Part shown: positions 1 through 52,240 of the stretch, in pieces
Numbering within the stretch: position 1 is the stretch's first letter
Layout: each line of letters begins with the position of its first letter
The notes under the pieces: generated by a model
Databases searched by the model: none
The model's input: only the letters and a program-made list of their open reading frames with translations
Told to the model about the DNA's origin: nothing
Made by a program: the position numbers and the translations under genes
Assembly (NCBI GenBank): GCA_964347045.1
Contig: CAYFXC010000001.1
Location: 64,001 to 128,000 of the forward strand
DNA from: an uncultured archaeon
GTDB taxonomy: Archaea; Asgardarchaeota; Hermodarchaeia; Hermodarchaeales; Hermodarchaeaceae
Length of the DNA stretch: 64,000 bases
Direction: 5' to 3'

Positions 1-123
1 TACGAGCTTCCATATGAATCACCTATCAGATGTCTTTACGTATTTATCTTCAAAGTTCCTTATGATATCAACCATCGAACAGTCTCATAAAGGATAGGAA
101 CTAAATTAATTAGGCGAAATAGC

Positions 124-22133: not shown

Positions 22134-22631
22134 TCAAAATGATGTGTGAAGAAATGCGATTTTAACTGCTTCTTTGCTGGTTCTAGCAATGTGAATATCG
22201 GCGTCAGGAAACAATGACTGGTTCTTTATAATCATTTGAGTAACTCCTCCTGTTCCTTTCATTAGAATTAACCGTTTATTCAATGCTATAGCATAGCCAA
22301 TCTCACTAAGAGTTCCACCGGATCCTGCCAGACTGATTATTGCATCGCTTGAAACTATGTTGATATAATTTCTGGCATAACCAATACCGGTAGCGAGTGG
22401 TATGTCAACGAAGGGATTTACTCCGGAATGTTGGTGCTCTGGTAAGATTCCGACAGTGATACCATTAACTGTTTTAGCGCCCCTTGATGCTGCTTCCATA
22501 ACCCCGTCTTTTCCCCCTGAAATCAGTACTGCTCCTCGTCGTCCAATTTCTTGACCTATTTCTTCGGCAATTTTTGATATTTCTTGAGATATTTTTCCAC
22601 TACTCCCAATAACTGCTATACGGATTTGCAT
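22134..22631 (-). CDS. LOG-family Rossmann-fold protein (TIGR00725-like)
   Basis: IAVIGSS, GGKDGVMEAASRGA, TGIGYARN, GGTLSEI; start at ATG 22631. Confidence 0.9.
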   Translation of the reverse strand: MQIRIAVIGSSGKISQEISKIAEEIGQEIGRRGAVLISGGKDGVMEAASRGAKTVNGITVGILPEHQHSGVNPFVDIPLATGIGYARNYINIVSSDAIISLAGSGGTLSEIGYAIALNKRLILMKGTGGVTQMIIKNQSLFPDADIHIARTSKEAVKIAFLHTSF

Positions 22632-22644
22632 AATGATTTCCTCC

Positions 22645-24744
22645 TTATTGCAAGCCTCTCCTTTTCTTGATTTCAGATATAATGGATACAGCGCGTTGTT
22701 CGGGGACAACTTGCCATCGAGCGAATTTCGTTTGCCAAATCGCTTTGCCTGACGTTTTCGAGCGTAATGTGTCAGCTAAGTCGAAGGACTCACCAACAGG
22801 TAAAGATCCGGTAATTGTTACCCAGTCTCTAGTGAATTCCACATCATCTACTTGTCCTCTTTTGGACATAATGACCTTATCAGTTTCCTTATGAAAATCA
22901 TTAGGGACAATAACTTGTATACTATAGATTGGTTCGAGAAGAGTAATTCCCGCTTTATTAAATCCAACGAAGATTGCCTCTCGTATCATGGACATTAGTT
23001 CTACTCTACTTCTTTCTGCTGGTTCAGAACTAAGCATAATATCCTCAATTTGAATTGAGGTGAGGCCGACTGGTTCTGCACATAGCGGTCCGCGTTCCAT
23101 TGCCCATTCGAATCCAGCTATTATTGCATCTTTTGCGGTTGGTGTTATTATGGTGTCTGTGAAATTGATGAGAATATTACCGCGAGAGTCCTTTTGCCAG
23201 ATATTCTCTTTTTTAATCATCTCTTTTTGAGGATAAACAGAGATGCGAATTGAATTCTTTCCGTTTGGGCTCATGTGATGTTTGTCTAATGTTATGTGGC
23301 TTCTAACTGTCTCGCGATAAAGTACAATTGGGTCTGATGCATATACTTGTATTCCAGCTTTTTCAATATCTTTCACAGCAATTTCCAAATGTAATAATCC
23401 CAATCCAGAAAGTAGATTTTCTCCAGTTTGTTCATTAACCAAAAACACAAGATTGGGGTCACCTTTGGTGAGGTTTTTGAAGAAGCTCAGTAACCGTGGT
23501 AAATCCTTCGTTTGTTTTGGCTCGATTGCTATGGTTACTACTGGTTCGCTAAGGTACGTTATTTCTTCAAATGGAACCATGCCTTGTATATTTTGTTGAC
23601 CGGTTATCGTATCGCCTGCCCGAACTTCTTCTGAACCAATTATGCCACAAATGTTACCTGCCGTTAAAGATGGAATTACTACTTGGCGTGAACCCATAAA
23701 CAAAGTAACTCGTTGAGTTTTGAATAATTTATTTGATGGGAAAATTTGTATCTGCGTTCCTCTTCTGATGGTACCTGAGAATAATCGACCAACGGCGATT
23801 AGGCCATGTTTGGATTCAGTAATTATTTTGGTGACACTAACAATAAGAGGGCCTTCTGAGTCACATGAACGAAGAGCTTTCCCTGCAGGAGAATTGATTT
23901 TACCTTTCCAAATGTATTGTACACGATCATTTTGAGCACTTTTGGGAGAAGGTAATTGACCAAGTATCATATTCAATATGGGCTCGTGAATAGGTAACAA
24001 TTGACTAAGATCCTCGATTGCATCACGTTGATATTTTTCAATAATGTCTTGAAATTGAAGATTTACTTTTTGAATTGACTCTACTGTGAATGCCCACTTA
24101 TGAAGAGCAGAACCAAAAGCCACCGTGTTAGTATCAGTTCCCACCTTCCAATTTACACTCGAATTTTCAGATGCAAACGTAATTATTTTGTTAACATCTT
24201 GAATTATCTGTGATAGCCGTTCTTGAATTTGCTTTGGTGAAAGTTTCAGTTCGCGAATAAGACGATCAATCTTGTTAATGAATAAAACAGGTTTAACTCG
24301 TTCTTTAATTGCCGATCGAATTACACTTTCTGTTTGAGCCATAACGCCTTCGACAGCATCTACAACTACGACCGCCCCATCAATAGCCCGTAAAGCACGT
24401 GTCACTTTTCCACTAAAATCAACATGACCTGGAGTATCAACTAGATTGACCACATATTGGGACCCTTGATAGTCATGGAGAAGCGAGATATTAGCGGCTT
24501 TGATTGTTATTGAGGCGTCTATGGTTCACCGAAAGACGTTTCCTCGCCGCTGCTCTTCTTCCAAATAGTCTAATGCTCGGGCTTGACCCACAAGATTGTA
24601 AGAAAGCATTCCGGCATTGGCTAGTAACGAGTCTGTAAGGGTCGTTTTTCCATGATCAATATGCGCAATTATCCCAACATTTCGAATATGGTCAGGATTT
24701 TTCATGAGTTCTAATAGTTCTTCGATACGTTGTTGACGGCTCAT
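22645..24744 (-). CDS. fusA: Elongation factor 2 paralog, two exons: join(24744..24540,24509..22645), 689 aa after splicing
   Basis: Exon 1: AHIDHGKTT...EEEQRRG; exon 2: [10 protein letters not shown]...[35 protein letters not shown]; diphthamide loop HRG replaced by ERS. Confidence 0.9.
24510..24539 (-). other. Putative BHB/BHL-type intron (30 nt) in the EF-2 paralog mRNA
   Basis: GAGG-AA^A-CGUCU...AGACG-CCUC-AA^U; contains an in-frame UGA; excision restores CGA GGA AUA ACA AUC (RGITI). Confidence 0.85.
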
Positions 24745-24866: not shown

Positions 24867-26546
24867 CTAGACAAGCTCCAAAGTGGGTTGTTCATATACA
24901 ATCATGATTATCTGAATGGTTCCAAGAATGGTCAAATCATTCTCTGCAATGAGGGAGAACTCGTGGGGACCAAGAATGAAGTCCTCGTCAATAGACCATG
25001 AAAGAACGGCGTACCCTGATGTATTGGTTATTGATGTGCACCACGTTGAATTTGTTGCATTTTCAATTAGATGCAATGATACGTTGAATATTGGTTGGTA
25101 ATTCAATGTTGTAAGTTGTAAAACATAATTAACTTCATTTGGTCGGATAACATGAAGGGTGGAATTACAGAGAAACCGTAGATTACGAGTATTAGTAACT
25201 TTAACCTCAGTTTCAGCATAATTAAATTCAGGATAGCCATGAAAAACTACTTTGAAATTAAAATCCTCATTCACGACGTTTTGCGCCTGCCATTGGAATT
25301 CTGCACAGCCGGTTTGGTCTAATGTAATTTGTGCAAGTAAAATCCATGTAGATTGATTAAATAGGTAGATTGAGCAGATTTTGTCTTGGATAGGCTTTTG
25401 GGAAGAAATGTCAGCGACGTTTAAATTAAATTCGATAATATCTCCATAAGCTGCTTCTGAACAGTTTGGTGTAAACGATATCTTTGCTTGCCGGTGTATG
25501 ACACTTATTGGTATTGAGGTATTGACGGGATTATGGTCGGGTGCAAAAGTTTCAATAACTAGGGAATATTCGCTGGGTAAGGATGGGGCAATAATATCTG
25601 TAGAAAAATAGTTTGATCCAATGTAAGTAAGATTTTGGGATATATTCCCTAAAGAGCAGCTAACATTGGCTTCCTTAAATGCATGATTCGCTGACTGACA
25701 ATCAAGGCTAGCTGAAACTAGAATCGAATAGTTGTTCATTGAAGGATAGAAAGCCTGGACTGTTGTAGTATTTGTTGTTACGGAGATATTGAGTTTAGCT
25801 TTAGCGATTTTTAATGGGACAGTTAAATTCGTGGTTTTATAGTCATTTGAGACAAGTGAATTGATTATACACTCAAAATCACCAGTTCCAAGTAAAGTCG
25901 AATTGATGAATTGAGTGAAATTATTGGCTGAGTCAGTTTGTAGGTTCCAAGATTGAATAGCTTGACTATTTTGAATGACTGAAATTGCTAAAGGCTGATT
26001 GGGAACCAAGAGCGACGAATTGTGTGAGTTAAAAAGCGCACCTGAAAGGTTGAAGAACTCATGAAATGTAATTTGAGAAGGGAGTGGGTTAACGACAATT
26101 AGCAGGTCACTTTGCATAATTTGAAATTGCTGCTGAACCGAGTCAGTCATTGATCCAATTGAATCTTGTACCCAACCTTCAACCTGGACGACACCAACTT
26201 GACCTGTCTCGTTTGGTGTCCAATCATCAGGAGAAATGTCAAAGGTCATTGTCTCGTGAACATCAAATCCATGTTTAGTGAACTCATAGGATGAAAGTGG
26301 GATGGATAATCCTTGAATACCGATCGAAACACTCACTGAACCTATTCCGAGGGGATCCATCGGATTGTAATACAGATCATAAACTAGGTTTACTTGAAAC
26401 CTTTCACCTACTTCAAGAGACGCCTGATTCAAAGTCACTGAAACAATTTGGATAAAACAATCATCAGTCATTACAGAGTGAAATGAGAATGTGAGGGGAA
26501 GAACAAGGATTGTCAATAGTAATAGAACAATAGGTAAACGCTTCAT
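24867..26546 (-). CDS. Secreted Ig-like repeat protein
   Basis: Signal peptide, beta-rich, many N-glycosylation sequons, LDQTGCAEF / TNTSGYAVLSW repeats. Confidence 0.7.
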   Translation of the reverse strand: MKRLPIVLLLLTILVLPLTFSFHSVMTDDCFIQIVSVTLNQASLEVGERFQVNLVYDLYYNPMDPLGIGSVSVSIGIQGLSIPLSSYEFTKHGFDVHETMTFDISPDDWTPNETGQVGVVQVEGWVQDSIGSMTDSVQQQFQIMQSDLLIVVNPLPSQITFHEFFNLSGALFNSHNSSLLVPNQPLAISVIQNSQAIQSWNLQTDSANNFTQFINSTLLGTGDFECIINSLVSNDYKTTNLTVPLKIAKAKLNISVTTNTTTVQAFYPSMNNYSILVSASLDCQSANHAFKEANVSCSLGNISQNLTYIGSNYFSTDIIAPSLPSEYSLVIETFAPDHNPVNTSIPISVIHRQAKISFTPNCSEAAYGDIIEFNLNVADISSQKPIQDKICSIYLFNQSTWILLAQITLDQTGCAEFQWQAQNVVNEDFNFKVVFHGYPEFNYAETEVKVTNTRNLRFLCNSTLHVIRPNEVNYVLQLTTLNYQPIFNVSLHLIENATNSTWCTSITNTSGYAVLSWSIDEDFILGPHEFSLIAENDLTILGTIQIIMIVYEQPTLELV

Positions 26547-36879: not shown

Positions 36880-36995
36880 TGGTGCGGGGGGTGGGATTCG
36901 AACCCACGAAGGTCTACACCACAGGAGCCTCAGTCCTGCCCCTTTAGTCGGAGCGGGTAAACCACGTTCCTTAGACCATGCTCGGGTACCCCCGC
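36880..36995 (-). tRNA. tRNA-Leu(GAG) with 28-nt D-loop intron (36944-36971)
   Basis: GCGGGGG/CCCCCGC acceptor stem, encoded CCA, CAGGA-CTGAGGC-TCCTG anticodon arm, long variable arm; BHB GGTC-TA^A...GACT-AA^A; 88 nt spliced. Confidence 0.93.
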
Positions 36996-52117: not shown

Positions 52118-52240
52118 TGGTAGCCCGGCGCGGATTCGAACCGCGGTCCCGGGGTGGCTTCACTGTTTTAGATTTACAGTTCCAAAGCCCCGGATGATTG
52201 ACCATTTTGCATCCATGGAAGGAGGCTACACTACCGGGCT
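52118..52240 (-). tRNA. tRNA-Gln(TTG) with two introns (19-nt D-loop; 26-nt at 37/38)
   Basis: AGCCCGG/CCGGGCT acceptor, CCA; BHB CTTT-GG^A...GAAG-CC^A at the anticodon loop and TGTA-GC^C...TGCA-AA^A in the D-arm; 78 nt spliced. Confidence 0.92.

Follow-up and report, generated by a model that had tools for sequence, protein, structure and literature searches.

How a translation factor can be made from a gene whose reading frame is broken inside switch I is the question raised by an elongation factor 2 (EF-2) family gene of an uncultured archaeon. The gene lies on the minus strand at 24744-22645 of the window, the 64-kb stretch of contig CAYFXC010000001.1 that was analysed as a whole, and all positions given without another prefix are window coordinates. 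Its two halves are separated by a 30-nt insert that is very probably an intron of the type cut by the archaeal splicing endonuclease EndA, and the mRNA is very probably spliced; the probability of this reading is put at roughly 0.88. Cleavage by EndA and ligation by RtcB are what we infer from the motif and its compensatory changes, the conserved site and 31-nt length in relatives, the selection acting on the gene, an intronless counterpart, and a genome that encodes the enzymes. The same lines of evidence support an earlier reading of the window made from its letters (the original prediction), which had proposed an mRNA intron of this kind.

At the level of DNA, the gene appears as two minus-strand open reading frames (ORFs) in the same frame, one of 72 aa (24744-24526) and one of 602 aa (24453-22645). 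The original prediction had taken these as pieces of one gene, and ORF, Pfam and TIGR00490 analyses agree. Jointly they encode a single five-domain EF-2-family protein (Pfam GTP_EFTU, D2, EFG_III, EFG_IV and EFG_C), which scores 692 bits on TIGR00490 (aEF-2), slightly below the cut-off of that model. The 30-nt insert with an in-frame UGA, also foreseen inside the RGITI motif, is found at 24539-24510. It adds ten codons, NVFR-stop-TIDAS, between RRG and ITIK in switch I. Deletion of the insert leaves 205 + 1862 nt, an open frame of 689 codons, and the predicted ligated exon-exon junction reads GGCGAGGAA^TAACAATC (here and below, a caret marks a cut or a join). The 689-aa product that had been expected from cuts behind the second bulge nucleotide is thereby in frame, and its RG^ITIK join is seen in the intronless relative described below.

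The comparison across relatives covers 24 distinct orthologous junctions, drawn from same-genus genomes, a second genus (L044), 10 metagenome loci and 5 divergent loci, down to 53% protein identity; the divergent loci were reached through N-terminally truncated database proteins. An insert occupies the identical site in 24 of the 24 junctions, with a length of 31 nt in all relatives and 30 nt in the window. The 31-nt length shifts the frame in the relatives, and the frame is regained only by excision. In the same-genus genomes, the protein match begins between residues 70 and 76 of the read-through query, and exon 1 lies just upstream in a different frame. The exon 1 protein of the window is 79-96% identical to its orthologues. 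With the insert removed, all 16 genes tested are open for 675-698 codons and read ...RRG^ITIK... at the join. In five orthologues the 3' site reads AG^U or AU^U, and the Ile is encoded only if the cut falls after the second nucleotide. The inserts of the relatives contain stops in the entry frame and show no amino-acid conservation.

Selection on the flanking exons points in the same direction. Pairwise ratios of nonsynonymous to synonymous substitution rates (dN/dS) have medians of 0.047 in exon 1 and 0.108 in exon 2; dS is saturated. Low values on both exons indicate that the gene is functional with the insert in place; neither a ratio near 1 nor further scattered frame disruptions were seen in the orthologues. 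Beyond this group, the insert is absent from 59 of 59 metagenome loci with identities of at most 47% and from genes of the archaeal EF-2 paralogue (aEF-2p) in other Asgard families.

The history of the insert is informative as well. When the C-terminal 580 residues are used to build a tree, the split genes group as a single clade with support of 100, and the sole intronless gene, P0003, falls deep inside this clade beside the gene of the window (98-100 in the Shimodaira-Hasegawa-like approximate likelihood ratio test, SH-aLRT). The product of P0003/L037 is 82% identical to the window protein and aligns to the read-through with a clean 10-residue gap. At its junction, CGT GGA ATT ACA encodes RRG^ITIK, the predicted spliced product. 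Judged by its sequence and placement, P0003/L037 represents a precise loss of the intron and provides a natural control on the junction predicted for the split genes.

This intronless gene holds an insertion of another kind. An intein of about 520 aa interrupts its P-loop (HGK^C...HN^TTL) in both P0003 and L037:410-1960, the latter on Hodarchaeota metagenome-assembled genome (MAG) contig JAEOTQ010000163.1, and the intein of P0003 matches Pfam LAGLIDADG_3 and Intein_splicing. In this lineage the RNA intron is gone, and a protein intron sits about 105 nt upstream of its former site. The idea that intein homing co-converted the intron away is unsupported; the stretch between the two sites is 86% identical to the window and not unusually divergent.

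EndA cuts after the second nucleotide of each bulge, as known from EndA-RNA structures, and the RNA of the junction can be compared with that rule. The unconstrained minimum free energy (MFE) fold of 24565-24480 contains GAGG/CCUC, the bulge AAA, CGUCU/AGACG and AGCGGC/GCCGCU, exactly the fold that had been drawn in the original prediction. The position of the 5' cut is set by the restored frame and by the intronless relative. In this genome, the combination of a 4-bp helix, a 3-nt bulge and a second helix at a fixed spacing of 30-31 nt arises in relaxed form at a fraction of 4.8e-4 of positions; with the quality found in the window, the fraction falls to 5.8e-6. Applied to the orthologues, RNAalifold arrives de novo at both the central helix and the hairpin of the intron.

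Compensatory change, for which an alignment of orthologues had been proposed as the test, is present in both of these helices. The 4-bp central helix is paired in 24 of 24 sequences, and its second pair is A-U in 13, G-C in 9 and G-U in 2. The exonic base of that pair is the third position of the Arg codon; it is always a purine in genes with the intron, and often T or C in intronless homologues. Across the orthologues, seven of the nine pairs of the intron hairpin have changed on both sides. Over the 24 sequences, 94.2% of cells are paired, compared with 31-47% in controls with the partners slid, and double-change cells number 54 against 15.7 +/- 4.1, a count reached by 0 of 500 shuffles. Several helix-pair changes occurred more than once, and pair types recur in separate subclades.

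The outer exon-exon helix behaves differently. The original prediction of a closed bulge-helix-loop (BHL) holds for the fold of the window, where this helix is present, and fails as a conserved feature, as the helix is specific to this genome and made by a Ser-to-Ala codon change. In G001 and G011, the two relatives compared by eye, three of its six pairs are kept. A shorter closing pairing of 3 bp, AGC/GCU, was rejected: its columns are invariant for coding reasons, and the pairing is broken in 8 of 24 sequences. Because the outer helix is not conserved, the motif is regarded as a relaxed HBh'/bulge-helix-loop and not as a closed structure. In agreement with the definition of this motif (PMC5829648), the junction has one bulge-helix intact together with an intron helix, and its second site falls in a loop that follows immediately on the 4-bp helix. 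A search of the window against Rfam matched no known RNA family.

Four points weigh against the intron, or at least temper the case for it. The fold energy of the single sequence is unremarkable (z = -1.59), and 14 of 200 shuffles fold as well. The comparative evidence is all drawn from one class of related genomes, and shared ancestry inflates the covariation counts. No helix closing the 3' bulge is conserved in the RNAalifold consensus, which departs from the strict hBHBh' form. Finally, searches of a protein database for short junction-spanning proteins, with read-through and P0003 queries, returned nothing from this clade, the matches being generic EF-2 fragments of at most 79% identity, a result that is evidence neither way.

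The enzymes that such an intron would need are encoded by the host. Close relatives are MAGs named Hermodarchaeota, Hodarchaeota or Promethearchaeota, in keeping with the Asgard host that had been supposed, and the GTDB class comprises 19 species in one family and two genera. A 186-aa EndA alpha subunit (G000:C7:6076-6636) has the catalytic Tyr/His/Lys context, and its best match is the catalytic alpha subunit of A. pernix (3P1Z_B, E = 6e-45). In a gap-free alignment, its Lys41 and Lys43 correspond to K44 and R46 in the Crenarchaea-specific loop of the A. pernix enzyme. This loop, K44 above all, enables EndA to cleave on the loop side of BHL substrates (PMC3241643), and (alpha-beta)2 EndA with this loop has been reported throughout Asgard archaea (PMC5829648). 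A 199-aa beta-like paralogue (C1:239477-240076) lacks the His and matches structural subunits, and RtcB is also encoded in the genome (C7:129123-130433). By these homologies, the host appears to have both an endonuclease type able to cut relaxed motifs and the RtcB ligase. Regarding tRNA substrates, ARAGORN with intron search finds 34 tRNAs in the genome, 17 of them with introns.

Two tRNA genes within the window come from that ARAGORN intron search only: Leu-UAG at 36880-36995 (minus strand) with a 28-nt intron, and Phe-GAA at 52118-52240 (minus strand) with a poorly modelled 46-nt insert at 32/33. Default ARAGORN and Rfam report no tRNA in the whole 64-kb window.

The identity of the gene bears on how its oddities are read. 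In domain IV, the diphthamide loop HxDxxHRG is not conserved, and by this feature the window gene is a diphthamide-loop-less EF-2 paralogue, aEF-2p; loss of the loop is a known hallmark of this paralogue (Narrowe 2018, PMC6143161). A second EF-2 gene at L002:1333-3735 on the minus strand (G000:C19) encodes 800 aa and keeps the diphthamide-loop histidines. Its loop reads VHEDPAHTK, with His kept and RG replaced, compared with LHEDPxHRG in canonical aEF-2. A search of the 89%-complete genome for PF01866 (Dph1/2), which covered only Dph2 among the dph genes, gave no match. The window gene resembles the aEF-2p described from dph-lacking Asgard and Korarchaeota (PMC6143161) in its five domains, intact G motifs, missing loop histidines and coexistence with a bona fide aEF-2. 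The paper mentions no intron, whereas in the present class the gene is split, P0003/L037 excepted.

The second EF-2, presumed to be the bona fide aEF-2, is itself unusual in that it contains insertions and is extended by about 70 aa at its C-terminus; it scores 553 bits on TIGR00490 against 692 for the paralogue.

Could the ribosome cope with the insert instead? Translational recoding might take the form of bypassing, frameshifting or readthrough of the TGA, and bypassing as in T4 gene 60 or the yeast mitochondrial byps also involves a short non-coding gap in an ORF beside a GGA codon and a hairpin. The insert follows directly on GGA, forms a hairpin as in gene 60 and is in frame in the window. 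However, the take-off codon (GGA) has no matching landing codon, as UCA precedes AUA ACA, and the helices have the geometry of an EndA substrate. The 31-nt length in all 24 relatives, the entry-frame stops, the lack of amino-acid conservation and the covariation of RNA pairs also argue against recoding, and none of the 59 intronless homologues has a 10-residue insertion between RG and ITI. Such recoding is therefore very unlikely. Much the same holds for cleavage by EndA without rejoining, or for two separate polypeptides, whether as a split GTPase or as a processing off-switch. Gene callers do see two ORFs, and the motif in itself proves only a potential cleavage site, but excision restores a single frame in 16 of 16 genes irrespective of whether the insert has 30 or 31 nt, and the intronless relative encodes the fused protein. 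Moreover, exon 2 has no conserved start codon, and the called ORFs begin at differing positions, with lengths from 583 to 666 aa. The ORF of 602 aa opens within the strand that precedes DTPGH and lacks G1 and G2. Separate products are accordingly most improbable.

The remaining explanations concern the gene or the data rather than its expression. An in-frame stop, a TIGR00490 score under the cut-off and a lost diphthamide loop are what a decaying pseudogene might show. Relaxed selection, named beforehand as its signature, is not what the exons display: dN/dS values of 0.05 and 0.11 on the two sides of the insert, with dS saturated, denote strong purifying selection. Throughout the class the insert persists together with open frames, and the loop loss is a hallmark of aEF-2p (PMC6143161), all of which makes decay extremely unlikely. 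The source is a MAG of 83 contigs, which could raise suspicion of an assembly or sequencing artefact, yet independent assemblies from NCBI, JGI, ENA and Logan yield at least 24 distinct sequences that carry the insert, and the probability of an artefact is practically negligible. Weighed rival by rival, bypass, frameshift, pseudogene and artefact were all rejected.

With an EndA-type intron as the preferred reading, the following course of events may be proposed. The pre-mRNA would fold locally, and a 4-bp helix would arise between its last exonic bases, GAGG, and intronic CCUC. Beyond this helix, a 3-nt bulge and a stable intron hairpin would lie on the 5' strand, and an A-rich loop on the 3' strand. 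A heterotetrameric alpha2-beta2 endonuclease would cut two nucleotides into the bulge and two into the loop, after which RtcB would join the exons to give ...RRG-ITIK... in switch I and a 689-aa GTPase. Unspliced mRNA would yield only a 72-aa peptide in this genome and a frame-shifted product in the relatives. The coordinates of the elements are given in Table 1.

Table 1. Exons, predicted intron and RNA elements of the aEF-2 paralogue gene (window coordinates).
Feature	Position	Strand	Details
Exon 1, aEF-2 paralogue	24540..24744	-	ATG at 24744; P-loop and start of switch I; ends ...EEEQRRG plus first base of the Ile codon
Predicted intron, 30 nt	24510..24539	-	Phase 1; in-frame TGA 24528-24526; 31 nt in every relative
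Exon 2	22645..24509	-	..TA ACA ATC = ITIK... to stop 22647-22645; 621 codons
Central helix H, 5' strand GAGG (exonic)	24542..24545	-	Overlaps the Arg-Gly codons
Central helix H, 3' strand CCUC (intronic)	24512..24515	-	MFE, RNAalifold, covariation
5' bulge AAA, 3 nt	24539..24541	-	Invariant in 24 sequences; predicted 5' splice site 24540^24539, after second nucleotide
Intron hairpin h'	24516..24538	-	CGUCU 24538-24534 with AGACG 24520-24516, plus small inner stem-loop; MFE
A-rich 13-nt loop, replaces second bulge	24499..24511	-	Predicted 3' splice site AA^U between 24510 and 24509
Outer exon-exon helix, 5' strand AGCGGC	24546..24551	-	MFE fold of the window; specific to this genome
Outer exon-exon helix, 3' strand GCCGCU	24493..24498	-	Made by Ala GCC; relatives have Ser TCN

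Public databases reflect the split. About 45 protein clusters at 53-82% identity are made up of ORFs that lack the N-terminal part and run to 583-666 aa, some of them under the name 'GTP-binding protein', and gene callers place a GTP_EFTU ORF of 57-86 aa directly upstream of the truncated ORF. Public annotation does overlook the intact gene, as the databases hold truncated ORFs only. EF-2 also serves as a marker gene.

One metagenome locus with the same 31-nt intron (L048:1123-1210) lacks about 18 codons after ITIKSAN, which joins TPGHIDF. This may be a real deletion, removing the strand before G3, or the product of a chimeric assembly.

Is this gene alone in its genome? A scan for HBh' motifs that fuse two ORFs, of the sort the original prediction had called for, gave 106 candidates, among which the aEF-2p intron was recovered; the scan provides a lower bound only. 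Ten candidates were tested with Pfam: one is real (cbf5), three are adjacent genes and six are uninformative. The three rejected as adjacent genes are NuoC/NuoD, PBP/permease and Vps4/ESCRT-II. In cbf5, which lies outside the window, a 41-nt insert of bulge-helix-bulge (BHB) type is located at G000:C16:22651-22691 on the minus strand (L151:952-992), with the arrangement CUGG AU^A ... CCAG AA^A. In its exons, INLD aligns to residue 52 of P. furiosus Cbf5 and KPPGP continues from residue 53, and cutting after the second bulge nucleotide restores INLD^KPPGP over the 41-nt insert. The insert is present in 14 of 14 genus-mates found and absent in two sister-genus genomes (L166 and L167), where IINID/IINLD-KPPG is contiguous. 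The cbf5 intron of Crenarchaeota lies at another site, within the codon for the catalytic Asp. Together, the class-wide aEF-2p intron and the new cbf5 intron suggest that, in some Asgard lineages, the tRNA machinery regularly splices mRNAs.

A further candidate is a 29-nt insert at G000:C8:26472-26500 on the minus strand (L141/L142), AGGG AAA CGAGUU...AACUCG CCUU, whose ends are much like those of the aEF-2p intron. Its removal would fuse frames of 56 and 320 codons, neither with a Pfam match.

Confirmed splicing of the endonuclease type has been known since 2002 for a single archaeal protein-coding gene, cbf5 of Crenarchaeota (PMC2738675), and our literature search found no paper reporting EndA-type introns in Asgard mRNAs. 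The crenarchaeal cbf5 intron (Watanabe 2002; Yoshinari 2006; Yokobori 2009, PMC2738675) resembles the present one in its often relaxed motif, its position in an essential functional motif, its occurrence in hosts with hetero-oligomeric EndA, its gain and loss among relatives and its mis-annotation in genomes. It differs in gene and phylum, the predicted intron described here lying in switch I of an EF-2 paralogue of Asgard archaea. Non-canonical HBh'/BHL tRNA introns of Thermoproteales and Asgard archaea (PMC5829648; PMC3241643; bioRxiv 10.64898/2026.10.13.758758) share the architecture, the length of about 30 nt and the presumed enzymes, and the tRNAs of this genome are intron-rich too. Here, however, the host is an mRNA, no tRNA body aids recognition, and the exonic strand of the helix is constrained by codons.

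Splicing of HAC1/XBP1 by IRE1 and tRNA ligase or RTCB offers a more distant parallel. In both cases, a short mRNA intron is, or here would be, excised enzymatically and without a spliceosome to give a functional protein, and in metazoans ligation is of the RtcB type. The likeness is one of principle only, as HAC1/XBP1 relies on the IRE1 endonuclease, a twin 7-nt-loop motif and stress regulation. It has been considered whether excision of the aEF-2p intron could be a rate-limiting, regulated step that ties synthesis of aEF-2p, a ribosome-binding GTPase, to EndA-RtcB capacity, as a HAC1/XBP1-type forerunner within a routine mRNA-splicing layer. The premise is that tRNAs, rRNA and several mRNAs of the cell may depend on the EndA-RtcB pathway. 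Such a regulatory role is doubtful; if true, mRNA splicing by protein enzymes would be routine in the closest archaeal relatives of eukaryotes. The aEF-2p intron also bears on ideas of intron tolerance in the archaeal ancestors of eukaryotes, and its junction of about 90 nt is a compact substrate for probing the specificity of Asgard EndA.

The surroundings of the gene are conserved. An LDcluster4 gene (PF18306, SLOG/LOG-like) lies directly downstream in all loci inspected, namely the window (22134-22709, minus strand) and L127-L130. Upstream of the split gene, relatives encode a protein of 500-560 aa without a Pfam match, the counterpart of which in the window is a 559-aa ORF at 24867-26546.

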